64,000 nucleotides of DNA from contig CAWAWS010000035.1 in NCBI GenBank assembly GCA_963785725.1, forward strand, positions 32,001 through 96,000, given 5' to 3'. The stretch's first letter is position 1, and each line of letters begins with the position of its first letter. The notes below the pieces were generated by a model. It saw only the letters and a program-made list of their open reading frames with translations, was not told the origin of the DNA and did no database searches. Positions 10,781 to 32,294 of the stretch are shown here, in pieces. A program made the translations under genes and the position numbers. The DNA is from an uncultured delta proteobacterium. GTDB lineage: Bacteria > Myxococcota_A > Polyangia > Palsa-1104.

Positions 10781-11755
10781 CCGCGCTGGAGGAGCTTGGC
10801 CGCTTCGAGGGCGTGATAGGTGAGGATCATGTCGGCGCCGGCGCGCTTGATCGACGTCAAGCGTCTCGAGGACGGCGCGATCGTGGTCGATCCAGCCGTT
10901 GGCGGCGGCCGCTTTGAGCATCGCGTACTCGCCGGAGACGTTGTAGGCGGCGACGGGCAGATCGATCTCGTCGCGCACGCGCGCGATGACGTCGAGGTAC
11001 GCGAGCGCCGGCTTGACCATGATGATGTCGGCGCCTTCGGCGACGTCCATCGTCACTTCGCGGATGGCTTCGTGGCCGTTGGCGGGATCCATCTGGTAGC
11101 TCTTGCGATCGCCGAAGTCGGCCGCGGTGCCGGCGGCCTCGCGGAACGGGCCGTAAAAACAGGACGCGTATTTGGCCGAGTAGGCCATGATCGGCAGCTG
11201 CTCGAAGCCGTCTTCGTCGAGCGACTCGCGCAGCCAGCCGACGTAGCCGTCCATCATGCCCGACGGCGCGATGATGTCGGCGCCGGCGCGGCCTTGCGAC
11301 AGCACGACGCGGCTCAAGTTCTCGAGCGTGGCGTCGTTGTCGACTTCGCCTTCGACGACGACGCCGCAGTGGCCGTGCGTCGTGTACTCGTCGAAGCAGG
11401 CGTCGAGGATGACGGTGAGCTTGGGGCACGCTTTTTTGATGGCGCGCGTCGCCTGCTGCACGAGGCCGTCGTCGTTCCAGGCCTCGGAGCCGACGGCGTC
11501 CTTCTTGTCGGGCACGCCGAACAGGATGACCGCGGGAACGCCCAGCGCGACGCACTTTTGCGCCTCGATGACCGCTTCGTCGACGGAGACTTGCGACTGG
11601 CCGGGCAACGACGCGATCGGCTTGCGCTGGCCTTTGCCGGGGATGATGAACAGCGGCAGGATGAAGTCGCCGGCGTCGAGCTGCGTCTCACGAACCAGGC
11701 GGCGCAGCGACTCCGAACGACGCATGCGGCGCGGACGATATTCGGGGAATTGCAT
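10777..11755 (-). CDS. hemB: Porphobilinogen synthase (delta-aminolevulinate dehydratase), one frameshift near 10860
   Basis: RPRRMR, HGHCG, APSGMMDG, YSAKYAS, YGPFREA, MVKP, AYNVSGEYAM; removing one base restores ...SIKRAGADMILTYHA...stop at 10777. Confidence 0.96.
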
Positions 11756-11766
11756 GACGAAAGAGG

Positions 11767-13221
11767 CTACTCCAACTTCGCTACGGCGTCGATGAGCGCC
11801 GGCAGATCGGGCGTCGCCGCGGTGACGATTGTGGGGAGGCCGAGCTCGCGCAACGCGGCGGCCGTCGTGTCGCCGATGGCGCCGAGCCGCACGTTCTCGA
11901 GCGCCGCTTTGCCCGCGAGGTCGACGAACGCGCGCGCGCCGCGCGGCGACGTGAACGCGATGGCGTCGAACGGGCGCACGCGATGCTCCTTGAGCGCGGC
12001 GGCGAGCGCGGCGTCGTCGCGCACGCTGTCATAGGCGGCGACGGCGTCGACGCGCCAGCCGGCGGCGATGAGCGCGTCGGCGAGCTCGGGACGGCCGTCG
12101 TCGGCGCCGAAGAGCAACGCCGGCCCGCCCGCGCCGCCGTCGACGAGCGCGTGCGCCAGCGCCGCGCCGCCGGCGTCACCGACGAAATCGGCGCGCAGCC
12201 CGCGTCCGGCCAAGCGTTCGGCGGTCGCGGCGCCGACGGCCGCCAGCTGCACGCCGGCAAACGCGCGCGCGTCGCGACCGAGCGCGGCCAGCGCGCCCGC
12301 GACGGAGTCGACCGCGTGGGCGCTGGCGAACGCGAGCGTGCGCACGCCGTCGAGCCGACCGAGCGCGGCCTTGACGTCGGCGAAGCGCGGCACGATCGTC
12401 AGCGGCGACACGACGCGCACGTCGAGCTCGGGACGCGTATTGGGCGCCGCTTTCGTCGTCAGCAGCAAGATGCGCCGCCGCTGCTCGAACCAGCTGATCC
12501 GCTGCCGCAAATTGACGACGGGACCGATGATCGTCAAGGCCGGCGGCTGCACGTCGGCGGCGCGCGCGATGGCCGCGATGGTGCCGATGGTGCCGGTGAT
12601 GACGCGCTGTCGCGCCGTCGTGCCGCGCTCGACGAGCGCCACCGGCTCCGACGCCGCGCGCCCGGCGGCCACGAGCCGCGCCATGACCGCATCCAACCGC
12701 GAGACGCTCATATAAAGGACGAGCGTGCCGGCGGCGTGCGCCAGCTCCGACCAGGCGATGGCGCCCGAGTCTTTGTCTTCCGTCTCCTGCCCGGTGGCGA
12801 ACGCGACGGCGCCGGCCAGGCCACGATGCGTGAGCGGAATGCCGGCATAGGCCGGCGCAGCGACGGCGGCGGTGACGCCGGGAACGACCGCGAACGGAAT
12901 GCCTGCGGCGACTAGGGCTTCCGCTTCTTCGCCGCCGCGACCGAAGACGAAGGGATCGCCGCCTTTGAGGCGCACGACGATCTGCCCGCGCAGGCCACGG
13001 TCGACCAGGAGACGATTGATCTCGTCCTGATCGAGGCCGTCGCGGCGCGCCGGGCGGACGATCAGCTCGGCCGTCGCCGGCGCGTGGCGCGCCAGGATCT
13101 CGGGCGCGACCAGGCGATCGGCGACGATGACCTCGGCGCGCGCCAGGCATTCCACGGCGCGCAACGTAATGAGACCGGGATCTCCTGGCCCGGCACCGAC
13201 GAGATAAACAAATCCTGGCAC
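11767..13221 (-). CDS. cobA-hemD: Fused uroporphyrinogen-III C-methyltransferase / uroporphyrinogen-III synthase
   Basis: VYLVGAGPGDPGLIT, RLKGGDPFVFGRGGEE, GIPLTHR; C-terminal HemD-like FASAHAV, AVGAATA, FTSPRG, AIGDTTA. Confidence 0.93.
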   Translation of the reverse strand: MPGFVYLVGAGPGDPGLITLRAVECLARAEVIVADRLVAPEILARHAPATAELIVRPARRDGLDQDEINRLLVDRGLRGQIVVRLKGGDPFVFGRGGEEAEALVAAGIPFAVVPGVTAAVAAPAYAGIPLTHRGLAGAVAFATGQETEDKDSGAIAWSELAHAAGTLVLYMSVSRLDAVMARLVAAGRAASEPVALVERGTTARQRVITGTIGTIAAIARAADVQPPALTIIGPVVNLRQRISWFEQRRRILLLTTKAAPNTRPELDVRVVSPLTIVPRFADVKAALGRLDGVRTLAFASAHAVDSVAGALAALGRDARAFAGVQLAAVGAATAERLAGRGLRADFVGDAGGAALAHALVDGGAGGPALLFGADDGRPELADALIAAGWRVDAVAAYDSVRDDAALAAALKEHRVRPFDAIAFTSPRGARAFVDLAGKAALENVRLGAIGDTTAAALRELGLPTIVTAATPDLPALIDAVAKLE

Positions 13222-15540: not shown

Positions 15541-15587
15541 GTCGTCGACATTACCGCAATTCCGAGTCGATGTTAGAATTTCGCCCG

Positions 15588-17339
<1,752 letters not shown>

Positions 17340-17389
17340 CGCCGCCATAACCGATATTATAATTTACGATTGATAACGAGTTTCGCGGA

Positions 17390-18922
17390 TTAACGAAGCG
17401 AGGACGTCGGCGTCGAGCCGGCCGGCGACGCCGACAGCAGCGACTTGCGGATGCGCTCGACCGACGCGCGCGCCGCCGACAGATCGGAGTCGTCGAGCGG
17501 CACCGAGTTCCACGCGCGCAGCGCCGACGCGCTGCCGTTCGTCGCCAGCGCCGACGCCACGCCGCGATCGAAGCGCTGCGCGACCTCCTCGGCGTGACGC
17601 GAGAGCGCGCGACGATAGGCGGCCAACGCCGCGCCATATTGCCGCAGCCGCTCGGCGCTGGGCGTGGCCGCGCTCGAACGCTCGAAGGGATCGACGATGT
17701 CGTCGCCCGCGCCGGCGTGAAACGGATCCTTCAAGTCGTGCAAGTTGGTGCGCGTAAACGGATCCATCAGCCGCAGATCGTCGTCGCTCGGCGGCAGCAC
17801 CGCGTCGCGCTTGAGCTCGCGGTCGAGCTTCTCGCGCGCCGCCGCGTCGTCGCTCGTCGCCTTGTCTTCCAGCTTGCCGCTCGACGAGTGCACCGGCGCC
17901 GGCGCTTGCATCGCCTCCAGCGCCTGCAGCTCGGCGCGCGCTTTTTCGACCCACTTCTGCTCGTCCGGCCGCCGCTCCATGCCGACGTATTTCTGGAACG
18001 CGCCGATGGCGCTCGACGTATCGCCGAGCGCCTTCAACGTCTGCCCGAGCCCGTAATACGGATCGGGATCGTCGGGCTTGAGCTTGATGTACTGCCGATA
18101 TGCGTCGGCCGAGTCGCGCCAACGCTCGGCCTTGCGCAGCGCGTGCGCCTGGTTGTACCAGCCGAGCGCGTAGCTCGGGTCGCGCTGCGTCGCCGCCGCG
18201 AACGCCTGCGCCGCGTCGCTGTACTGCTTGAGCGCGAAGTAGGTGTTGCCCAAATCGTTACAGAGATCGAGGTTCCCCGGATCGGCTGCGATGGCGCGCT
18301 TGTAGGCTGGCACGGCTTCGGCCCACTTGTTCTGCGCGCGCAGCTCGTCGGCTTTGGCGCGCAAGGCCGCCGCGTCGTTGCCGCCGCCCGCCGCCGGCAC
18401 GTGATCGTTCGTCACCGTCGTCGGCGCCGCCGCCGCCGTGTCCGACGTGCCCGACAGCTTCGACAGCTCGGCCCAGGCCTCGTCCACGAAGCGCTGCTTG
18501 GCCGGCGCTTTCTCGATGGCGACGTACTTCTGATAGGCCGCGACCGCGCCTTTGCTGTCGCCGAGCCCTTGCAGCGCCGCGCCCAGCCCGAAGTAGGTGT
18601 CCGAGCGCGACGGATTGAGCGCGATGTAACGGCGATAATAGTCGGCCGCGTCCGCCCACTCCTTCTTCGCGCGATAGGCATAGGCCAGCTTGTAATAGCC
18701 CTCGGGATAATCGGGCACGCGGGCGACGGTGATCTTCAGCCGGCGAATGGCGTCGTCGTAGCGCTTCTGCTTGAGGGCGGCGGCGGCGAACGCGTCGCAA
18801 GCCTTCATGTCGTCGGGATGCGCCTCGGCGACGCGCCCGAGATCATCGAGCTCATCGGCGAGCGCGGGCGCCGCGACCGAGGTGAACAGAGCGAACGCGA
18901 GCGATGGTGCGAGAACGCGCAT
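17390..18922 (-). CDS. Exported TPR-repeat protein
   Basis: Signal peptide; two blocks of TPRs (YYKLAYAY, YFGLGAAL, YYGLGQTL). Confidence 0.88.
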   Translation of the reverse strand: MRVLAPSLAFALFTSVAAPALADELDDLGRVAEAHPDDMKACDAFAAAALKQKRYDDAIRRLKITVARVPDYPEGYYKLAYAYRAKKEWADAADYYRRYIALNPSRSDTYFGLGAALQGLGDSKGAVAAYQKYVAIEKAPAKQRFVDEAWAELSKLSGTSDTAAAAPTTVTNDHVPAAGGGNDAAALRAKADELRAQNKWAEAVPAYKRAIAADPGNLDLCNDLGNTYFALKQYSDAAQAFAAATQRDPSYALGWYNQAHALRKAERWRDSADAYRQYIKLKPDDPDPYYGLGQTLKALGDTSSAIGAFQKYVGMERRPDEQKWVEKARAELQALEAMQAPAPVHSSSGKLEDKATSDDAAAREKLDRELKRDAVLPPSDDDLRLMDPFTRTNLHDLKDPFHAGAGDDIVDPFERSSAATPSAERLRQYGAALAAYRRALSRHAEEVAQRFDRGVASALATNGSASALRAWNSVPLDDSDLSAARASVERIRKSLLSASPAGSTPTSSLR

Positions 18923-19004
18923 GAAAAGACTGTATCACCGGCCGCAAAGCCGCGACAGGGACGCCGATCACGACGTCAGACGCAAATGTAGGATTCGAGT
19001 CGGG

Positions 19005-20177
19005 TTACAGGCGTTCGAGGATGGTGCAGGTGGCCTGGCCGAAGCCGATGCACATCGTCTGCAGGCCATATTTGACGTCGCGCTTCTCCATCTCGTTGAG
19101 CAGCGTCGTCATGAGCCGCGCGCCCGACGCGCCCAGCGGATGGCCGAGCGCGATGGCGCCGCCGTTGACGTTGACGTTGTCGAGCTTCCAGCCGAGCTCC
19201 TTCGACCACGCCAGCACCACCGACGCGAACGCCTCGTTGATCTCGACGAGCCCGATGTCCGACGGCTTCAAATTGGCCTTCGCCAACGCCTTTTGCGTCG
19301 CCGGGATCACGCCGTGCAGCATCATCGTCGGGTCGACGCCGGCCACCGTCATCATCTTCACCCGCGCCCGCGGCTTCAGCCCGAGCTGCTTGGCCTTCTC
19401 GCTCGACGTCACCAAGAGCGCCGCCGCGCCGTCCGAAATCTGCGACGCCGTGCCGGCCGTCACCACGCCGTCCGGCTTGACGACGCCTTTGAGCCCCGCC
19501 AGCTTCTCCAGCGTCGTGTCGGGACGAATGCCCTCGTCCTGGTCGAACACGTGCTCCGAGCCGTCGGCCGCCTTGACCGTCAGCGGCGCGATCTCATCGC
19601 GAAAGCGGCCCTGCTCGCGCGCCTTGGCCGCTCGCGTGTGGCTCTCGAGCGCCAGCTCCTCACACTGCAGCCGCGAAATCCCCCACTTCTCCGCGATCAT
19701 CTCCGCCGATTGATGCTGCGGCACGAAGGTGAACTTGTCGTTGAACATGGGCGAAAACGGGAACGTCGGCGCCACGCCGGGCACGCCCATCGCGCCGTCC
19801 GAGCCCATCGGAATGCGCGTCATCGACTCGACGCCACAGGCGACGACCGCGTCCATCATGCCCGTCATGACCGCCTGCGCGGCGAAGTGGAACGCCTGCT
19901 GCGAGCTGCCACACTGCCGATTCACCGTCGTGCCGGTGACTTCGATCGGATAGCCGGCCATGAGCGCGGCCGTGCGCGCGACGTTGAAGCCCTGCTCGCC
20001 GATCTGCGTGACACAGCCGGCGATGACGTCGTCGATCTCTTTCGGATCGACCTTCACCCGCGCCGCCAGCGACTGCAGGATGAGCGCGAGCAGATCGTCG
20101 GCGCGCGTGTTGGCCAGCGCGCCCTTCTTCTTGCCGATGGCGGAACGTACGGCAGCGACGATGACGGCATCAGACAT
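19005..20177 (-). CDS. Thiolase (acetyl-CoA C-acyltransferase)
   Basis: NRQCGSS, EINEAFA, GGAIALGHPLGASG, MCIGFGQ. Confidence 0.97.
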   Translation of the reverse strand: MSDAVIVAAVRSAIGKKKGALANTRADDLLALILQSLAARVKVDPKEIDDVIAGCVTQIGEQGFNVARTAALMAGYPIEVTGTTVNRQCGSSQQAFHFAAQAVMTGMMDAVVACGVESMTRIPMGSDGAMGVPGVAPTFPFSPMFNDKFTFVPQHQSAEMIAEKWGISRLQCEELALESHTRAAKAREQGRFRDEIAPLTVKAADGSEHVFDQDEGIRPDTTLEKLAGLKGVVKPDGVVTAGTASQISDGAAALLVTSSEKAKQLGLKPRARVKMMTVAGVDPTMMLHGVIPATQKALAKANLKPSDIGLVEINEAFASVVLAWSKELGWKLDNVNVNGGAIALGHPLGASGARLMTTLLNEMEKRDVKYGLQTMCIGFGQATCTILERL

Positions 20178-20213
20178 GACGAGCTCCTGGGTTCGAAGGA
20201 AATGGACCCGTCG

Positions 20214-20242
20214 ACTGTACTGACTGAGCGGTCATTCGTCAA
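20214..20242 (-). promoter_or_regulatory. Thiolase promoter with an inverted-repeat operator in the spacer
   Basis: TTGACG-17 nt-TACAGT; the spacer contains TGAC-N6-GTCA (20221-20234). Confidence 0.7.
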
Positions 20243-20345
20243 CGCGACCCGCGCCAAACCCGTGTGTGACTGAGTTCTCCGACGCCAAAAACGACGCTGT
20301 GACGAAAGTTGTATCCAATGAAGGAAAATGTACTACAATGTAGGC

Positions 20346-20432
20346 ATGATCTTCGTCTTCGGTAACGTCGCCCTGCTCTTCGTCACCGTCGGTCTCTTCG
20401 TCGCCACCGTGTCGATTAAAAAGCCGCACTGA
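20346..20432 (+). CDS. Putative 28-aa single-TM small protein (MIFVFGNVALLFVTVGLFVATVSIKKPH)
   Basis: Almost all codons end in G/C; hydrophobic core with basic tail; TACAAT 6 nt upstream of the ATG; below the ORF-track cutoff. Confidence 0.55.
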   Translation: MIFVFGNVALLFVTVGLFVATVSIKKPH

Positions 20433-20486
20433 ACTAATTGCGTTGTGCGCTCCTACCGTTAGGCATAAAAAGGGGCGAGGACGACG

Positions 20487-21635
20487 GTGGCCAGCGACGA
20501 TCACGCAGTGCGGCAAGCGGCCGCGTCCAACGGGCGCGCCAACTTGTCACGCGTCGACCACGCCACGCTCGGCGACGTCGAGGCCATGCGCCTCTTGTTA
20601 CGTGGCGCGTCGGTCATCGACTGGCACACGCTGTCGTTTCATGACGGCGCCGAGGTCGATCGTTTTCTCCGGCTGAACGAGTTCGATCCCGAAAACGCCG
20701 AGGACAACGATCGGCTCGAAGAGCTGCGCGCCGACGCCGTCGAGTACCTGACGCGCAACTTCAGCTACCACATCCCCGACGACGTTGCGCATGCGATGCC
20801 GGCGCGCGAGCTATTCCTGTTGGCGTCGTCGCGCGGCAAAAAGCAGGTCTACGCCTGCATCGTCTTGAAGGTGATGCACGTCATGCATCACTTGGCCGGC
20901 CGCGAGTTGCTCTTCAAGCTGCCGGTCTCCGACGACGAAGTGTTCGGCTTCGTCGAGAGCAAGGTCGTCAAGGTGGTCGAGCAGATTCGCGCCGCCGGCT
21001 ATCCGATCGTCGAGTTCGCCTGGAGCCGCAAAGAGCGCGACTCGGTGGTGACGAAGCTGCTGGCGAAGAAGGCGACCATCGCCGCCGACGTCTTCGACAA
21101 GCTGCGCTTTCGCCTCATCACGCGCACGCTCGAGGACTTGCCGGCGGTGCTGCACGAGCTCTTGCATCGGCTGGTGCCGTTCAACTACGTCATTCCGGGC
21201 CAGACCGTGAACGGGATCCTGCCGTTTCGGAAGCTGCTCGAGGTCATGCCGCCGTACGCGCGCTACTCCGACCAGCTGCAGCTCGATCTCGACACCGAAG
21301 AGGTCGAAGCCAGCGGATCGAACGAGTTCTCGGGGCCGACGTATCGCGTGATCAACTTCGTCGCCGACTTGCCGGTGCGGATCGATCAGTTCTTGAATCG
21401 GCTGCCCGACGGCGACAACGAGCTGGGCACGACGATCTTCGTGCTCACCGAATTCCAGGTCATGGACGCGGACACGGCGCGGCAGAACGAAGCCGGCGAC
21501 AACTCGCACGCGAACTACAAGGCGCGCCAGCACGATCGCGTCCGCCTGCGCCTGCGCCAAGGCGAAAAAGGCCTGCGCGAAGCCGCGCTCTCGACGCCGC
21601 CCGCCAACGCCTCCGAAGACGACGACGAAGACTAA
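20487..21635 (+). CDS. TIGR04552-like protein with RelA/SpoT synthetase-type motifs
   Basis: RKERDSVVTK, VFDKLRFRLI, TYRVINF, TEFQVMD and NEAGDNSHANYK are colinear with RSH SYNTH motifs; family name from recall. Confidence 0.75.
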   Translation: MASDDHAVRQAAASNGRANLSRVDHATLGDVEAMRLLLRGASVIDWHTLSFHDGAEVDRFLRLNEFDPENAEDNDRLEELRADAVEYLTRNFSYHIPDDVAHAMPARELFLLASSRGKKQVYACIVLKVMHVMHHLAGRELLFKLPVSDDEVFGFVESKVVKVVEQIRAAGYPIVEFAWSRKERDSVVTKLLAKKATIAADVFDKLRFRLITRTLEDLPAVLHELLHRLVPFNYVIPGQTVNGILPFRKLLEVMPPYARYSDQLQLDLDTEEVEASGSNEFSGPTYRVINFVADLPVRIDQFLNRLPDGDNELGTTIFVLTEFQVMDADTARQNEAGDNSHANYKARQHDRVRLRLRQGEKGLREAALSTPPANASEDDDED

Positions 21636-21668
21636 CCAACCCGCCGTCAATCGCTTCAGGTGAGCCTA

Positions 21669-21697
21669 TGGGCCGCGCAGTAGGTTTCAGGCGTGAC
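21669..21697. repeat. Relic right end of the palindromic element
   Basis: tgggccgcgcagtaggtttcaggcgtgac is nearly identical to 21814-21842. Confidence 0.7.
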
Positions 21698-21702
21698 CGC
21701 CG

Positions 21703-21841
21703 GTAGTCGCGCCTAAAACCGTAGCGAGCAGGCCCAAGCGCAAGGCGGAGCGAGCACCGGAGCGCAGCAGCCTCTTGGCTGTGAGCACCGGAGCGCAGCG
21801 ACAACGCGGCGCTTGGGACGCGCAGTAGGTTTTAGGCGTGA

Positions 21842-21845
<4 letters not shown>
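21703..21845. mobile_element. MITE/REP-like palindromic element (copy A), 18-bp terminal inverted repeats
   Basis: gtagtcgcgcctaaaacc (21703-21720) vs ggttttaggcgtgactac (21828-21845), 17/18 complementary; inner cccaagcgc/gcgcttggg pairing. Confidence 0.75.
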
Positions 21846-24478
<2,633 letters not shown>

Positions 24479-24643: not shown

Positions 24644-25414
24644 TCAGAAGTAGAGGCGCGCTTCGGCGTCCTGCTCGCGATGGCGACGCTGGCCGCCGAC
24701 GACGAACGCGTCGATGATTCCGTAAGCGGTGACGGCGAGGAGCGCGGTGAAGCAGGTGATGTTGATGCCGCGTGCGCTCGTGTACAGCGCTTCGTGGCCG
24801 GCGAAGGTGTGATCGTGGCCTTCGAAGTGCGTCAGCAAGCTGTAGGTGACGATGGTGCCGCCGAGCAGCGCGAGCTCGAGGCCGCCGAGCACGAAGCCTT
24901 TGACGCGCTGATGATTCTGGAACTGCCCCACCGTCGGCAATAGGTCGAGCCCCCAGTTGTAGCGCGGCACGGTCCGACGATAGACGGCGAGCAGCTCTTC
25001 GCGATGGCGCAGCCGCACTTCGTCGAAGAAGGCGACGGCTTCGGGGCGGACGAGGCGCGGATCGAGGCGCGTTTGCGGCTCTTCGCGCATGAGCAAGAGG
25101 AACGCGCCCTCAGCCGCCGTCTTGCGATCGGTCAGCGTGCAGGCAATGCCGTAGACGCGTAAGGCTTCGATGCGATCGACTTGCAGCGGCAGCTCGCGCG
25201 CGCCGTTCTCGACGATGGGCCGCAGCCGATTGACGACCGCTTCGTAGTCGCCGAAGTCGAAGCGCTCGAGCGCGTCGGCGATGGGCGACTCGGCGTGCGA
25301 CAGCTGCGCCGGCTCGGGCGCGATCGTCACGCCCGGCGGCGGCGCGTCGGCGTGCGCGCTGGTCGTCGCCGCCGTGAGCGCGAACACGATGATGCAGCAG
25401 CGATTAGCGGACAT
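24644..25414 (-). CDS. Hypothetical protein: signal peptide, TPR-like helices, C-terminal TM helices
   Basis: GDYEAVV...AEGAFLLLMREEPQTRLDP; GQFQN motif preceding the TM helices. Confidence 0.7.
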   Translation of the reverse strand: MSANRCCIIVFALTAATTSAHADAPPPGVTIAPEPAQLSHAESPIADALERFDFGDYEAVVNRLRPIVENGARELPLQVDRIEALRVYGIACTLTDRKTAAEGAFLLLMREEPQTRLDPRLVRPEAVAFFDEVRLRHREELLAVYRRTVPRYNWGLDLLPTVGQFQNHQRVKGFVLGGLELALLGGTIVTYSLLTHFEGHDHTFAGHEALYTSARGINITCFTALLAVTAYGIIDAFVVGGQRRHREQDAEARLYF

Positions 25415-26658
25415 CGGACAGCGCTCCCACGAGCTCGGGCACGAGCGCTTCCAGCTCCGCCGTCACCGCCGCGTAGAGCGGATCGCCAGTGCGGCGGATG
25501 GCTTGGTTCGGCTGCGCTTCGACGATGCGGCGCATGACCGGGCGACCGTCGCGAACGACGATGACCTCGAGGCGGCAGCGCACCGACGGGCCGGGCATGT
25601 AGTCGACGTTGTCGAGGCGCGCCATGACGACGGCGCGGGCGCCGGCGCGGTAGCCTTCGTCGGCGGCGACGGCGGCCGACGTGATGCCGACGCCCGTCGG
25701 CACGACCGTCAGCCGCAGGCGGCGCTGCAGGAACGCGAACAGCGCTTGCGTCGCCATCGCGCCCGAGCCGGGATAGGCCGACTGCGGATCGGCGACGGCG
25801 TGCGCGACGACGCGACCGCGCACGAAGCCGGCGAAATAGGGCGAGGGCGCGGCCGCACGCGCGGGAACGGCGGCCGCACGCGCGGGAACGGCGGCCGGCG
25901 CCGGCGTGTCGACGCGCGGCGGCGCCCAATCGGGCTCGCGAATCTCGCTGCGCGGCGCCTCGGCAGCGCGCGCCGCTTCCGGCTTGGCCGCTTCGGCGAC
26001 GGCGACCTTGGCTTCGGTCGGCGCCTCCGTCGGCGCCTTGGTCGGCGCTTTGGTCTCGAGGCGCGCGGCTTCCGGCTTGGCTTCCGCTTTCCCGTCGACC
26101 TTGGCGTCTTTGGTGTCCTTTGTGTCTTTCGCGTCTTTCGATTCTTTGGATTCGGGCGTCGCAGCGGCCACCGCCGGCGGAACGATGTGCGGCTGTGACG
26201 GCGGCGGCGCGGCGACGACGCGGCTCGCCGACGACGGCGACGACGGCGGCACCGCGGCGGCGCGACGCGCGGCATCGTGGGCGCGCTTTTCGGCCGCGCT
26301 CTGCGCCGCCGGATCGTTCTCGAGGAGGAGCGGCGCGATTCTGATTCGCCAGCTGCGTCGCCACGGCGTCCATCGCTTCCAGCGGGCCCTCGGCGGTCAG
26401 CGTTCGGCCGCGCAGGGTCGCCGCCAGTCGCACGCGGTCGCGCGCCAAAAGCTCGACGCGACCGGTGATCGTGGCCTCGGCGCCGGCACCGGTCTCGACG
26501 CCGGCGCCTTCGAGCGCGGCGGCGACGGCGCGTGCGACCTCGGGCCCGAAGTAGCCGAGCGACTCGTCATGCACGCTGAAGGGGGCGACCTGCACGCGCG
26601 GCCGCGCCCACACCGTCGCCGAGCCGGCCAAGACGAGCGTGACGACGAGCGCGCGCAC
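25404..26658 (-). CDS. Hypothetical exported protein with low-complexity linker, frameshifted near 26250-26345
   Basis: The signal-like VRALVVTLVLAGSATVWA segment in one frame joins ORF 25404-26252; start uncertain. Confidence 0.55.
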
Positions 26659-27418: not shown

Positions 27419-29186
27419 TCAGTTGGCTCCGCCGTCCACGATCGTCCCGCCGTCGGCGGCGACGCGCTGGCCGGGATCGGGGAGATACAGCTTGTAGTTG
27501 CCGCTCGAGTCGCTGACGGCGGTCTTGAGGATGGTCGGCGTGGCGCAATCCCAGCACATCGCCTCCACCAGCGTCGCCGGGACGGGCGCGTTGTTCGATG
27601 CATAGACGACGCCCGCGATCTGCAAGCCGGGGCCGAGCGTGATGTCGGCGTTGCTCACGCCGGCGGCGACGAACACCGTGGCGTCGCTGAGCTTGGCGGC
27701 GGCGAGCGGCTCGACGCGCACGCTCGAGGCGGTGCCGGCGCCGACGTTGATCGTGTAGACGCCTTGGCCGTCGGTGGTCGCGGCCGGCGCGGCGCCGAGG
27801 CCGGACAGCGCCGTCGCCGTGACGCGGGCACCGACCACGGGCTGGCCGGCCAGATCCGTGACTGTGCCCGACAGCGCAACGGGCGGCTTCAGCGTCAAGC
27901 TCCAGGTGCCGGGCGCGGTCGTCTGAAAGGTCGTCAGCCCGTCAGTCGAGCCGGCCGGCGGCTCGACGGTCACGACGTACGCGCCGGCGGGCAGCTGCAG
28001 CGCCGGCAAGGCCGCGAGCGCGTCGCTGATGACGACGGTGCTGACGCGACCGCTGGCGACGAGCGTGCTGCCGCCGATGGTGACGTTGGCGGCCTGCGCG
28101 ATGGCGTCGGCCGATTCGATGGTGACGCGGGCGCCGGCGACCGCGCCGCCGCTGCTGCCGACGACCGTGCCGCTGACGGCGACGCGCGGAACGCTGTAAG
28201 CGATGGCGATGCTGAGACCGGCGCTGGGAACGGTGACGTTGTCGAGGGTCAACGTGGGCCAGCCGTCGCTGGAGACGCCGAGCTGATACGGCGTCGCCAG
28301 CGCCTCGGCGCGCAAGCTGAAGCTGCCGTCGCTGGCGCTCTGGCCGAGGCCGCTCGGCAAGAGCCCGGCGCGCAAGACGACGCCGGCGCCGGCGATGGGG
28401 TTCGTGCCGTCGCTGACGCTGCCAGCTGATGGGCGCGCCGGCGGTGACGACGAAGCCCGCCATCGTCAAGTCGTAGCCGGGGCTTTCGTCGCCGAGATGC
28501 GGCGCCAGCGTCGGTGAATCGGGGATGAGCAGCGGCCGATAGAGATCGCTGGCGCTGACCGAGAGCGAGAAGATGCCGTTGCCGCCGGCGCGCGTATCGG
28601 CGTCGGGGACCTGCGTGCCGACGAAGCGGACTTCGCCCGACGTGGCGCCGAGCGGGCCGGTCAAGATGCCGCTCACCACCAGGCCGTCGACGAGGTCGAG
28701 CGAACGGTTGGCCAGCGGCGTGCCGCCGGTCAGAATCTCCATCGTGTCGGTGGGCGCGCTCTTGCCGCCCGACGGCGGCAGCGCGCGCAAGCGGTAGACC
28801 GCGGTGGCGCCCAGCGGATCGGTCACGTCGACCGACTGAAAGCTGGTGCACGCGCCGTTGGCGAACGTGAGCGTGAACGTGTACGTGCCGGGGCTGGTGG
28901 CGAGGACGGTGGCGATGCGGCCGGTCGCATCGACGGTCGCGGTCGGCGCCGCGCCGCCGGCCAGCGCCACCGTCCACTGCGGGTCGGGGAACGTCGCGAC
29001 CGTCGAGGCGGTCAGCGTCGCCGGCGGAAACGGCGACGACTGCACGAGCAACACCGGGCAGCCCGGCGGCGGGATCGAGGCCAGATCGCTGCCGCCGAAG
29101 CCGAAGTCGAACGGCGGCGCGGTATCGTCATCGCCGGCACAGCCCGCGACCGCGAGCAGGAAGATCAGCGCAGCTCGAGCGACCAT
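27419..29186 (-). CDS. Lipoprotein with repeated carboxypeptidase-regulatory-like (beta-sandwich) domains, frameshift near 28425
   Basis: Lipobox VAGC; repeated SGTV.D..G.PV.GARVT motifs across ORFs 27942-29195 and 27419-28375. Confidence 0.75.
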
Positions 29187-30364
29187 GTCATCCACCGCAA
29201 GCAGCTATTGGGTTGTTGAGGCTCTTCCACGAGACACGAGGCCTCGAGGCATTGGTCGGTGTCGATGCTGCAGTTGGCGCGCGTGCCGGTGCGATCGACG
29301 ACCTCGACGCGCACCTGCACCGTCTCGCCGACGTCGAAGCCGCTGGTGTCGAGCGTGTAGGTCGGATCGTCGAGATCGACGGCGCGCCAGGTCGGATCGC
29401 TGGTGCGCCAGACGCTCCACACGAAGGTCAGCAGCGGGCTCGGGTAGGGGTCGAGATCGTCGATGACGCCGGTGATGGTGAACGTCTGCGGCACCGTGCG
29501 ATCGACGACGCGCAGGCCGGCGCCGGGGATCGTGCCCGCGATGCACGGCGGCTGATCGCTGATGACGGCGACGCCGGTCTGCTTCCCCGACACGACCGGC
29601 GGGTTGACGCCGTCGCTGACGCTGACGTCGAGCGCGTAATAGCCCGCCGTGTCGCTGGCAACGGCTGGATCGGTGTACAGGCAGATCTGCTCGGAGTCGG
29701 GGAGCGTGAGCGTCGGACCGGCGCCGGCGGGCGCGCCGGGACAGCCGCCGGCGACGAGCGGCCCGAGCAGCGGCTGCGCGCCGACCGGCGCCGTGACGAC
29801 GGCCCAGGTGTAGGTGAGCGTCTCGTCGACGAGGTGGCAGGTGGCATTCGCGGGCGGGATCGGATCGGCGTCGGCGTCGCTGGCTTTGCCGGCGAGCTGC
29901 ACGACGATCGGCTGTCCGGCCGTGTACGCGTTGCAGGCGTTCGGCAGCGAGTCGGCCTGCGGTCGCGCGCCCAGCGTAAAGACGGGCGCCGCGTCGACCA
30001 CGTCGATCGGCGTCGTCGTCGTCGCCACGGCGCCGAGCTCGTCGCTGCTCGTCGCCTCCACGAAATAGTGGCCGGGCGTGTAGATGAACAGCTGCGCGCC
30101 GGACATCGCTTGCACGACCGTGCCGGTGCAGTCGTCCTCGACCGGCTGCTGGTTGGCGTCCAGCAGTCGAATCTTCATCAGCTGACGCACCACATCGGCG
30201 TCATCTTGGTCATCCTCGACGATCACGTTGGCGCTGATGAGCTGGCCGCGATAACCCACCGTCGGCGACAGCTCGATCGTCATGCCGGGCGGGTCGTTGC
30301 GAGTGCCCGTGTACAGGCAGCCGCAGACGACGGCGAGCGGCAGGAGCGCCAGCAGGCGGAGCAT
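29165..30364 (-). CDS. Cys-containing lipoprotein with PKD/Ig-like domains
   Basis: MLRLLALLPLAVVCGC lipobox; ASDADAD...LTYTW, DVSVSDG, LTFVWSV. Confidence 0.7.
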   Translation of the reverse strand: MLRLLALLPLAVVCGCLYTGTRNDPPGMTIELSPTVGYRGQLISANVIVEDDQDDADVVRQLMKIRLLDANQQPVEDDCTGTVVQAMSGAQLFIYTPGHYFVEATSSDELGAVATTTTPIDVVDAAPVFTLGARPQADSLPNACNAYTAGQPIVVQLAGKASDADADPIPPANATCHLVDETLTYTWAVVTAPVGAQPLLGPLVAGGCPGAPAGAGPTLTLPDSEQICLYTDPAVASDTAGYYALDVSVSDGVNPPVVSGKQTGVAVISDQPPCIAGTIPGAGLRVVDRTVPQTFTITGVIDDLDPYPSPLLTFVWSVWRTSDPTWRAVDLDDPTYTLDTSGFDVGETVQVRVEVVDRTGTRANCSIDTDQCLEASCLVEEPQQPNSCLRWMTWSLELR

Positions 30365-30446
30365 CTTCGCCCGCTCCAGCAAGACGTGCGCCACGCCCAG
30401 GCTCAGGCGGGACATGGAGCACACACGCCAAATCGCGACATCGCTG

Positions 30447-32294
30447 TCACGGTCGTTCGCAAGCGGGCTGCGGCTCATCGACCAGGCGGCAGCCTTCGGG
30501 CGGCACGTCGACGTAGCGGGTCGCCAGCGCCTGACCGGCGCGGAAGAACGTGAGGCGACGGCGGCCGGGCGCGATCTCACGCCCGCCGGTCATGGGCGGG
30601 CCCTCGTCGACGGCGACGGCGTCGGCGTGCGTCAGCGACGGCGTCAAGCGCACCGGGCGGTACAGACGCTGCTTGAGATCGCGCGTCTCGCCCGCGGCCA
30701 AGTCGACGTCGGTGACGAGGCTGTTGTGCCCGGCGGCCGGGTTGACGCATTCGACGTGATGATGGCCCGCCGGCAACGACAGCGTCTGCGGCGTGCGACC
30801 GCGGGCGCTGCCGTCGACGCGCAGGTCGCACCACGGCGCCGTCTCCACTGTCAGCTTCGCCGCCGCATCGACGACCGCCGGATGCGTCGGTTCCGGCTCG
30901 GGCGCAGCTGTGACCTCGGGAGCCGCGGGCGGCGGCGTTTGTGGACTATCCGGCAACAGCTTGCGGTGGCGCGCGTCGACGCGCGGACGCGCATTGGCCG
31001 CGGCTGGACGCGCCGGCGCCGGCAACGGCGCCGCCGATTCGCCCGTCGGCGGCGGCGCGATGGCGACGATCGGCAGCGCGCGCCCGACCGCGGTGTCGGC
31101 GAGCGGCGATGGACCGATCGCGCTCGGTTGCGCCGGCCGCAAAGCGCGCATGCGCGCTTGAAATACCGCATAACCGGCGGCGGAGCTGGCGGCGGCCACG
31201 AGCGCGGCGACCACGACGAGCCGGCGGCGCGGCCGCGGTCGCGCCGAAACCGCCAGCGCCAGCGCGCCTTCGTCGTCGGGACGCCAAGCCAAGATGCGAT
31301 TGGCCGCCGCCAGCGCGCGCGCCGTCTCGCCCGCCGCGCGCGCGCGTTCGGCCTGCGTCCGCGCCGCCGCGACGATGCGCTCCTCGGCCGCGCGGTTGTA
31401 GCTGGCCGGATCGCGTAAATACGCGGTCAGCTCGGCGTCGACGTCGCCGAATCCGTCGGCGACGAGCCCTTCGCGCAGCGCGTTGGCGCAGGCGTCGGCC
31501 GAGGCGAAGCGCTCCTCGGGCGCCGCCTTCAGACAGCGCTCGATGACGCGCTCGACATAGGGCGGCACGCGCGGATTCTTCGCCGAGGGCGGCAGGTGAT
31601 CGCCGCGGACGATGCGCGCCATCGTCGCCAGCGGCGACGTGCCGACGAACGGCAGCGCGCCCGTCGTCAGCTGATAGAGGAGCGAGCCCAGCGAAAACTG
31701 ATCGGAGCGCACGTCGATCTCCGACGACGACGCCTGCTCGGGCGACATATAAGCGGGCGAGCCGAGCACGGCGCCCGTCGCCGTCATCGAGTCGGTCTCG
31801 AGCACGCGGGCGATGCCGAAGTCGCACAAGACGACGCGCTCGCGATCGAACATGACGTTCTCGGGCTTGACGTCGCGGTGGATGATGCCGCGCGCGTGCG
31901 CCGCCGCCAGCGCTTGCGCCACGCGCAGCCCGAGCATGGCCGCGATCTCCGCCAGCGGCGCGCCGTGCTCGACCAAGAAGCGCTGCAGCGACGGGCCGGT
32001 CAAGAGCTCCATGACCAGGTAGGCCGGGCTGTCTTCCGTCGCCGGCGCGTAGTCGTGCAGCTTGAGGACGTTGGGATGGCTCAAGCCGGCGACGGCGCGC
32101 GCCTCGCGCTCGAAGCGGCCGCCCGCCTCCGACTTGGCGGCGATGAACGGGTGCATGACCTTCAGCGCGACCTGACGGCCGAGCGTCGGATCGTCGGCGC
32201 GATAGACCGTCGCCATGCCGCCCTGCCCCAGCTTCTCGACGAGCCGATAGCGCCCCAGCATGGTGCCGGCCAGGGAGACGACGCTCGCGCTCAT
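30447..32294 (-). CDS. Membrane Ser/Thr kinase with PEGA-like domain
   Basis: GQGGMATVY, HRDVKPEN, DFGIAR, GSPAYMSPEQ; APWCDLRVDG. Confidence 0.95.
   Translation of the reverse strand: MSASVVSLAGTMLGRYRLVEKLGQGGMATVYRADDPTLGRQVALKVMHPFIAAKSEAGGRFEREARAVAGLSHPNVLKLHDYAPATEDSPAYLVMELLTGPSLQRFLVEHGAPLAEIAAMLGLRVAQALAAAHARGIIHRDVKPENVMFDRERVVLCDFGIARVLETDSMTATGAVLGSPAYMSPEQASSSEIDVRSDQFSLGSLLYQLTTGALPFVGTSPLATMARIVRGDHLPPSAKNPRVPPYVERVIERCLKAAPEERFASADACANALREGLVADGFGDVDAELTAYLRDPASYNRAAEERIVAAARTQAERARAAGETARALAAANRILAWRPDDEGALALAVSARPRPRRRLVVVAALVAAASSAAGYAVFQARMRALRPAQPSAIGPSPLADTAVGRALPIVAIAPPPTGESAAPLPAPARPAAANARPRVDARHRKLLPDSPQTPPPAAPEVTAAPEPEPTHPAVVDAAAKLTVETAPWCDLRVDGSARGRTPQTLSLPAGHHHVECVNPAAGHNSLVTDVDLAAGETRDLKQRLYRPVRLTPSLTHADAVAVDEGPPMTGGREIAPGRRRLTFFRAGQALATRYVDVPPEGCRLVDEPQPACERP

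Follow-up and report, generated by a model that had tools for sequence, protein, structure and literature searches.

Stringent-response signalling in bacteria has the RelA/SpoT homologue (RSH) enzymes at its core. The subject here is a gene whose product can be placed alongside those enzymes, i.e., an open reading frame (ORF) for a 382-amino-acid protein which begins with GTG and which occupies positions 20487..21635, forward strand, of a 64,000-nucleotide stretch of DNA from an uncultured delta proteobacterium (Myxococcota_A; Polyangia; Palsa-1104). That stretch, which in its entirety is what I call 'the window', consists of positions 32,001 to 96,000 of contig CAWAWS010000035.1, assembly GCA_963785725.1. 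The protein is a member of what is known as the TIGR04552 family, and that family is homologous to RSH synthetases. Tentatively, the protein may be viewed as an active pyrophosphotransferase of a divergent RSH type, one that probably employs a non-canonical acceptor.

Among the closest described systems are the small alarmone synthetases RelP and RelQ, also designated SAS2 and SAS1, respectively, which come from Firmicutes and which are described as tetramers (PMC5794853). For the enzyme SaRelP, the same source describes Lys80, Ser84, and Lys88 as contacting the phosphates of ATP and Asp107 and Glu174 as serving as ligands for Mg2+, with Arg78 and Arg112 stacking the adenine, His190 contacting the ribose, and Tyr151 of the so-called G-loop stacking the base of the acceptor. 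The acceptor itself is reported to differ among toxic small alarmone synthetases (toxSASs), being the 3'-CCA of tRNA for FaRel2, CapRel, and PhRel2 and giving (pp)pApp for FaRel and Tas1. Even in such an altered-acceptor RSH enzyme the Asp and the Tyr are reported to be essential, as seen with the D90G and Y128A substitutions of FaRel2 (bioRxiv 10.1101/2021.04.30.441581). As so described, toxSASs supply a precedent for a SYNTH fold which retains its donor residues, along with its stacking Tyr, while the acceptor changes.

Membership of the present protein in the TIGR04552 family is, as judged by profile scores, clear, that is, the protein is neither an orphan nor a rare oddity. The TIGR04552 model matches it at 356.3 bits (2e-106, the cut-off being 125), with residues 30-357 falling on model positions 4-351 of 352, and the sister model, TIGR04562, is also above its curated cut-off, at 334.7 bits. 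A genome-level search with TIGR04552 gave 356.5 bits and a single copy in the organism's own genome. Both models are named merely 'TIGR04552 family protein', with no function assigned, and relatives in the thousands bear no annotation other than 'uncharacterized protein (TIGR04552 family)'. Among the candidates that were scored, the family comes to 2280 matches at 90% clustering and 778 clusters at 50% identity, with the named relatives being from Myxococcales, Polyangia, and Myxococcota metagenome-assembled genomes.

Homology of this family to RSH synthetases is arrived at by four independent routes, i.e., a profile search of the PDB, profile-to-profile alignment using hhalign, Pfam matches to relatives, and a structural model. 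The first of these employed a profile based on an alignment, A1, of 80 family sequences from two protein searches, ranging from 83% down to 29% identity to the query. Compared with all PDB sequences, that profile returned four rows at E<=10, every one a GTP pyrophosphokinase (RelP, 6fgk, E 0.004; Rel, 7oiw, 0.011; RelA, 5iqr and 5kps, 0.8), with their motifs corresponding one-to-one. The family profile is needed for the match, since a single-sequence phmmer search of the PDB gave only four flavoprotein rows (E 0.86), which are put down to chance. When A1 was instead aligned by hhalign with A2, the latter being a set of 26 SYNTH segments from long RSH genes within the phylum, the result was a probability of 90.9% (E 1.1e-6) over 123 columns, taking in residues 165-347.

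For the third route, the 80 relatives include 31 with a match to the Pfam model RelA_SpoT (PF04607) at E<=0.01, the best being at 4.2e-6, and other Pfam families do not recur among them. Matches to the TIGR04552 genes of four genomes (G002, which at 29.2 bits is over the cut-off, along with G010, G047, and G140) attain or exceed the cut-off and extend across model positions 4-112 of 113, i.e., nearly end to end, and PF04607 is found on 11% of the members of the family's ESM-Atlas cluster. For the protein itself, all that Pfam returns at E<=10 is RelA_SpoT plus one chance row. The RSH link is in other words latent in the automatic annotation of the TIGR04552 family.

The fourth route is that of predicted structure. 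An AlphaFold2 model built on A1 has a mean predicted local distance difference test (pLDDT) score of 90.5 and a predicted template modelling score of 0.88, and in that high-confidence model residues 148-369 (20928..21593) have the RSH SYNTH nucleotidyltransferase fold, as is consistent also with VIA-align and hhalign. The modelled domain consists of strands at 174-181, 206-212, 289-298, and 316-327 and of helices at 149-169, 184-193, 215-228, and 328-335, as well as a long C-terminal helix at 341-369. Foldseek comparison with the PDB gave 30 matches at E<=1e-3, with RelP (4.2e-6) and RelQ at the top and Rel, CapRel, and RelA next; 22 of the 23 matches listed are named RelP, RelQ, Rel, RelA, CapRel, or GTP pyrophosphokinase. 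VIA-align has RSH SYNTH domains in every one of its first 23 rows (Z 12.8-9.3, root-mean-square deviation 2.6-4.7 A, 122-150 residues), with RelSeq, RelA, and Mtb Rel each near 12.8, RelP at 12.4 (150 residues), and RelQ at 11.6, and with the matched part of the model starting at 144/148 and ending at 339/351. Next after RSH are nucleotidyltransferases of the polymerase lambda/beta/mu sort, at Z<=9.1. An earlier reading of this DNA, made from its letters and ORF translations and here termed the sequence-only reading, had proposed an RSH relationship and had named a predicted fold other than that of RSH, or motif residues not conserved family-wide, as what would refute it. Neither check refuted it, as the model has the RSH nucleotidyltransferase fold and the family does conserve its motif residues, which can be seen below.

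Compared with the SYNTH domains of long RSH enzymes (Rel, RelA, SpoT; 1vj7, 24io, 5iqr, 5xnx), which give best Z scores of 12.7-12.8 at 2.8-3.2 A over 124-130 residues, the protein differs in its surroundings. That is, an HD hydrolase domain is not found by hhalign, and there is no TGS/ACT region: The SYNTH-like domain is followed only by a disordered tail, which has no Pfam match and with which the protein ends at residue 382. That tail, residues 370-382 (21594..21632), is acidic, unconserved, and predicted with low confidence (pLDDT <50 for 374-382), with the family model's match already having ended at residue 357. RelP and RelQ (6fgk, 6ex0, 6ewz, 5dec, 5ded), the best Foldseek matches, share the SYNTH fold at Z 10-12.4 over 126-150 residues and share the ATP and Mg2+ residues plus the G-loop Tyr, at identities of about 14-19%. 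Relative to these two the Myxococcota protein nevertheless possesses an additional N-terminal domain (about 145 residues), a G-loop insertion, and a number of motif replacements, as considered in turn in what follows.

Five RSH synthetase motifs occur in order along the 382 residues, i.e., K-S-K, D..R, Y-R, E-Q, and H..YK, which agrees with the sequence-only reading's description of an altered synthetase set in the canonical order. Residue roles were mapped onto these from SaRelP by way of the hidden Markov model (HMM) alignment to 6fgk, whereby Lys80, Ser84, and Lys88 correspond to K182, S186, and K190, Asp107 and Glu174 to D204 and E322, Arg112 to R209, His190 to H341, and Tyr151 to Y286. 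The ATP-phosphate motif, R181-K182-x3-S186-x3-K190, is found at 21027..21056, within S180-R181-K182-E-R-D-S186-V-V-T-K190 and with the codon for R181 at 21027. Its K182, S186, and K190 are present in 78, 74, and 76 of the 80 sequences of A1, respectively. The second motif, D204-K-L-R207-F-R209 (21096..21113), supplies the predicted Mg2+ ligand D204 (78 of 80, the other two being E) and the predicted adenine-stacking R209 (74 of 80), between which stands R207 (78 of 80). A predicted second Mg2+ ligand, E322 (79 of 80), is followed by Q324 (76 of 80) within E322-F-Q324-V-M-D327 (21450..21467), which is the counterpart of the RSH ExQxRT. Last in order is N334-E-A-G337-D-N-S-H341-A-N-Y344-K345 (21486..21521), the counterpart of AExGxAAHWxYK, in which N334 is kept in 79, G337 in 77, the presumed ribose-contacting H341 in 75, Y344 in 77, and K345 in 74 of the 80.

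Conservation extends beyond A1. Across a set of 52 genomic loci of the phylum, one which includes divergent copies at 22-29% identity, K182, S186, K190, D204, R209, N242, E322, Q324, and D327 are kept in 52 of 52, i.e., down to 22% identity. The motif residues are indeed among the best conserved columns of A1, and the set of five is on such evidence a matter of homology rather than of chance. At the positions aligned with them, the residues that bind ATP and Mg2+ in RelP are conserved almost without exception in the family. A qualification applies to the first Arg of the RSH RxK, which the sequence-only reading had equated with the Arg of RKxxxSxxxK. Though the K-S-K portion of that equation stands, RelP Arg78 in fact aligns with S180 (S in 43 and G in 29 of the 80), while the nearby basic residue, R181, is one residue out of register and is kept in just 45 of 80.

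It is the acceptor side that is the remodelled part of the protein, again relative to RelP and RelQ. Residues 243-285 (21213..21341) represent a family-specific insertion at the RSH G-loop region, which hhalign leaves unaligned to RSH, as befits the insertion before the Y motif that had been pointed out from the sequence. It spans 25-51 residues across the 80 sequences, is modelled with lower confidence around residues 271-280 (pLDDT block 68), and ends in N279-E-F-S282-G, with N279 found in 70 and S282 in 66 of 80. N279 aligns, by hhalign, with the Asn of the RSH acceptor motif PKxNG, the Lys of that motif having no conserved counterpart. Immediately following the insertion is Y286-R-V-I-N290 (21342..21356), the counterpart of (G)YxSxH, with Y286 (60 Y plus 18 F among the 80) being the predicted stacker of the acceptor base. 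That the His of YxSxH is replaced by Asn, as had been claimed, is true of this protein; across A1, however, the position is a variable one (N 50, S 10, K 9, H 4 of 80). In addition, the RT of ExQxRT has become x-D, with D327 present in 79 of 80, and R207 stands as an extra Arg in place of the Gly of the canonical DxxGxR. Residues listed as family-invariant on this remodelled side are N242, D327, N334, R347, and R355, with K128 listed as well.

Position 207 also serves to distinguish sub-types. It is R in 45 of the 52 loci and G in the other seven, which are divergent. The TIGR04552-type, including the present protein, displays DxxRxR along with Y-R-x-x-N, whereas the seven divergent loci display DxxGxR along with YxSIQ and thereby look closer to classical RSH; as regards the RxK Arg, they have a Lys at the -3 position. 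Five of the seven were scanned, and these score best with TIGR04562. As seen at the level of motifs, the seven loci would appear to bridge the TIGR04552 family to classical RSH. One genome, G182, carries, as judged for the divergent copy by its motif, both sub-types, i.e., a divergent DxxGxR copy and a TIGR04552-type DxxRxR copy (C2:680174-681163 and C7:86907-87887; L073, L074), their co-occurrence implying that an ancient duplication was followed by divergence at the Gly/Arg position of the motif. No fused or longer forms of the family were seen among proteins of 670-2000 residues, which is weak evidence as to their absence.

What these residues might accomplish can be described by analogy to SaRelP. 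ATP would be held by K182, S186, and K190 at its phosphates, by R209 via adenine stacking, and by H341 at its ribose, and the ligands of Mg2+ would be D204 and E322. Y286 would stack the base of the acceptor, and a hydroxyl of that acceptor would receive the beta,gamma-pyrophosphate of the ATP. That acceptor probably would be bound unlike how GDP or GTP are bound by Rel, RelP, and RelQ, and possibly it is a different molecule. A non-canonical acceptor seems likelier than GDP or GTP, as it is the acceptor side that has been remodelled. The protein, that is, may be an active ATP pyrophosphotransferase of a divergent RelA/SpoT type with probably a non-canonical acceptor, and I would place the probability of this reading at somewhat under one half, i.e., roughly 0.45. 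The sequence-only reading's proposal, a pyrophosphokinase with a possibly different acceptor, is in this sense plausible, given the RSH fold, the conserved motifs, and the remodelled acceptor side.

A number of observations weigh against the reading as an active pyrophosphotransferase. On this particular protein PF04607 reaches just 14.5 bits (E 0.043, residues 182-225), the cut-off of 27 not being attained. The adenine-stacking Arg of RxK is not in register, with 72 of the 80 sequences having S or G at its position and with the neighbouring R181 kept in just 45. Acceptor binding, furthermore, is not something that analogy can supply, since the Lys of PKxNG lacks a conserved counterpart and both the His and the Arg-Thr of two other motifs are replaced. 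The apparent clustering of active-site residues derives from alignment to solved RSH structures rather than from measured distances, and an enzyme that binds nucleotides but is dead for transfer would show much the same conservation. The literature searched, lastly, contains no enzyme activity data on any family member.

One alternative retains the acceptor of the better-known enzymes. The protein, that is, could be a very divergent small alarmone synthetase that employs GDP or GTP, that produces (p)ppGpp, and that supplements the long Rel. With this the fold and all donor-side catalytic residues are in agreement, N279 does align with the Asn of PKxNG, and 78 of the 80 sequences retain, as Y or F, the aromatic that stacks guanine in RelP and RelQ (a role described in PMC5794853). 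The acceptor-side motifs nevertheless are changed, what with the insertion, the loss of the PKxNG Lys, the His becoming N, S, or K, and the RT becoming xD. Canonical Rel is moreover already available: A long RSH is encoded elsewhere in the organism's own genome and is present in 61 of 61 sampled genomes, and two genomes, G152 and G182, possess a classical SYNTH-only gene (112-119 bits) as well. A third phylum-conserved (p)ppGpp synthetase would be redundant given canonical Rel together with, in some cases, SYNTH-only genes, and a GDP- or GTP-using enzyme I consider to be unlikely. It is possible to go further and to suppose no catalysis at all, i.e., a pseudoenzyme of RSH fold which binds ATP or an alarmone and which acts as a sensor or regulator, for instance of the adjoining Ser/Thr kinase or of motility or development. 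The displaced adenine-stacking Arg, the replacement of several canonical motif residues, and the large extra N-terminal domain, which is without known fold, would all fit, and kinase genes do recur alongside the family gene, i.e., in five of 20 diverse loci as well as in the window and six close relatives. All 52 loci, the most divergent of them at 22% identity, nevertheless retain both metal ligands and the K-S-K triad, which is the pattern of a working site, whereas inactive SYNTH domains such as that of Moraxellaceae SpoT are reported to lose important SYNTH sites (PMC3153485). A pseudoenzyme thus would seem rather improbable.

Two further alternatives depart from alarmone synthesis in other directions. 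Following RSH, the next structural neighbours are of polymerase beta/lambda/mu type, at Z 8-9, and the acceptor site is un-RSH-like, which together might suggest some other nucleotidyltransferase chemistry, e.g., the transfer of AMP to a protein, an RNA, or a small molecule. Yet polymerase-beta-type nucleotidyltransferases carry a GS...DxD signature with which the motifs here do not align; those motifs (K-S-K, ExQ, HxxYK) instead align specifically with RSH, and sequence profiles match RSH alone, leaving such chemistry quite improbable. The fold matches include CapRel (7ztb_B, E 2.4e-3), and toxSAS enzymes are reported to show a switch of the RSH acceptor to tRNA or ATP, so that a toxin, whether of a toxin-antitoxin or an anti-phage system and like FaRel2 or CapRel, also comes to mind. 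Unlike toxSASs, which are toxins that are accompanied by antitoxins or secretion systems and that are patchily distributed, what is seen with TIGR04552 is a conserved single-copy chromosomal gene without a partner. No antitoxin-sized gene is next to it in the window, where it stands alone between a divergent and a convergent neighbour. For 20 loci of the wider phylum (with crude gene calls of our own, three genes to each side), no small-partner family recurs among the 120 neighbour proteins scanned, PADLOC defence models gave no matches at E<=1, and nothing in these surroundings looks like an antitoxin or a defence island. The family is mostly single-copy, in 132 of 201 genomes, and is found beside housekeeping genes with conserved local synteny. 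Going by these results, the gene is not a toxin-antitoxin or defence gene, and a toxSAS-type toxin is hardly credible.

Preceding the catalytic domain is an all-helical one, residues ~20-147 (20544..20927), which is delimited by conservation and by the full model, where its pLDDT is >90. Its family-specific conserved residues are G40, S42, D45, W46, D73, A113, C124, L127, K128 (80 of 80), H131, and H135. When modelled in isolation on an alignment of 28 sequences (A3), the domain has a pLDDT of 78.1. Searched with Foldseek against the PDB, it gives no matches at E<=1e-3, and VIA over 48,161 chains gives a best Z of 5.8, to RbcX-like helices, a value below the stated noise level for helical models and upon which RbcX was rejected as a match. 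A Pup-ligase cluster was likewise set aside, its best score of 0.81 in a part-search of the ESM-Atlas being below the 0.9 level for a lead. The absence of any evident HD hydrolase motif in this region, as had been remarked upon earlier, holds up, that is, Pfam finds no HD domain on the protein at E<=10, hhalign against 24 RSH HD regions gives a probability of 0.3%, and an HD phosphohydrolase appears in VIA only at Z 4.1, though the domain may conceivably be a very remote HD relic. As modelled, this domain of about 145 residues matches no known fold. Residues 20-50 drop from a pLDDT of >90 in the full model to approximately 50 in the isolated one, a drop which suggests that these residues pack on the catalytic domain. 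Likely the family-specific helical domain packs there as a regulatory or substrate-selecting module.

Turning to the gene's immediate layout, a Shine-Dalgarno-like GAGGA (20477..20481, forward strand) is found 5 nt 5' of the GTG. That start is supported by close relatives (L003-L005, 77-82% identity), as these align from residue 1. To one side is a divergently oriented thiolase gene (19005-20177, reverse strand; Pfam) and to the other a convergently oriented gene for a Ser/Thr kinase with a PEGA domain (21842-24478, reverse strand; Pfam), and with such neighbours the TIGR04552 gene is monocistronic in the window. Over 15570-24478 the order otherwise is that of an ABC1/UbiB-like atypical kinase (+), a 510-aa tetratricopeptide repeat (TPR) protein (-), the TIGR04552 gene (+), and the PEGA kinase (-). 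Among 32 close Polyangia loci, many of which end at contig ends, a divergent upstream TPR gene is seen in 21, the ABC1/UbiB-like kinase further upstream in 13, and the PEGA Ser/Thr kinase downstream in six, such that the arrangement is locally conserved in close Polyangia relatives. The thiolase gene, which here intervenes between the TPR and TIGR04552 genes, is present in only one of those 32. A link to gliding motility within the window was considered and rejected, the upstream TPR protein not being GltE (21.7 bits versus a cut-off of 225).

Among the 20 diverse loci, no universal neighbour or operon partner is found. A protein kinase gene adjoins the family gene in five, and other recurring neighbours are Lon, RsgA, DnaJ...RpoN-HPF-RapZ, and RecD2-RNase II/R. 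In several instances the family gene stands beside genes related to translation or stress (L079 and L080, of G084 and G169; L077 and L078, of G009 and G144; L072 and L074, of G152 and G182), with examples being DnaJ-kinase-[gene]-RpoN-HPF-RapZ, RecD2-RNase II/R-[gene]-lipoate ligase, and GreA-like...RsgA-[gene]. This translation- and stress-gene pattern, as seen in other families of the phylum, is at most suggestive. Elsewhere in the window, a second Ser/Thr kinase with a C-terminal PEGA domain, like that of the first, lies within 10 kb (30447-32294), and between the two are four ORFs that lack a Pfam or NCBIfam match (24644-25414, 25404-26252, 27942-29195, and 29165-30580). Further upstream, at 10592-13221, are tetrapyrrole genes, i.e., ALAD (HemB) and a fused uroporphyrinogen-III methyltransferase/HemD. 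Positions 1-4000 have a G+C of 0.54-0.59, versus 0.63-0.77 over the remaining window, and this first 4 kb may be foreign or non-coding DNA.

At the level of the phylum, 132 of the 201 genomes sampled contain the family (124 of the 191 that are of high quality), nearly always in single copy, and none of 14 control genomes does. The gene behaves as a chromosomal, vertically inherited, and usually single-copy gene of the phylum. Nine genomes (G001, G018, G024, G030, G036, G042, G048, G054, and G060) have in addition a second frame of ~720-840 aa with a weak and partial PF04607 match, of 27-44 bits at model positions about 20-110, which may represent a divergent long-RSH paralogue.

The searched literature contains no link between the TIGR04552 family and RSH. 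Two RSH censuses (PMC3153485, PMC7229694) do not mention Myxococcus or Bdellovibrio in their main text. In Dataset S1 of the second, M. xanthus DK1622 has entries for Rel[HS], PbcSpo[H], and Rel[S], and one B. bacteriovorus strain has a single entry, Rel[HS]. The 'Rel[S]' so listed for M. xanthus and Sorangium (PMC7229694) might be the TIGR04552 family or might be something else. The SYNTH-only genes of G152 and G182, two genomes of another family in the phylum, would at 112-119 bits fit 'Rel[S]', with PF04607 missing the TIGR04552 genes of those same genomes even at E<=1. As to phenotypes, the M. xanthus family member, MXAN_4858, is reported in a 2026 preprint to display a motility-like and development-like fitness pattern, and an earlier insertion in that gene is reported to have been without overt motility defect. 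In a paper on Bdellovibrio evolution, one of the evolved populations is reported to have an indel in a 'TIGR04552 family protein'.

The gene family thus is already catalogued, and it is the functional link to RSH, along with the altered acceptor site, that is new. A large, curated, and function-less family, one of 778 clusters and found in 132 of 201 genomes, is now tied to the RSH fold, with a donor and metal site that are intact and an acceptor site that has been rebuilt. It is conceivable, though doubtful, that this is a phylum-wide housekeeping branch of RSH which published censuses have left uncounted, a branch that pyrophosphorylates an acceptor other than GDP or GTP and so yields either an alarmone-like nucleotide not described to date or an RNA with a pyrophosphorylated end, that is gated by its N-terminal domain, and that feeds into the myxobacterial gliding-motility and developmental programme. 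The RSH complements tabulated for Myxococcota, so far as those census rows go, would seem to be incomplete. The hypothesis which results is in any case a concrete one, namely that of an ATP-dependent pyrophosphate transfer that would hinge upon D204, E322, and Y286, and earlier changes of acceptor within the RSH fold, i.e., to (pp)pApp and to the CCA end of tRNA, have each opened new biology.

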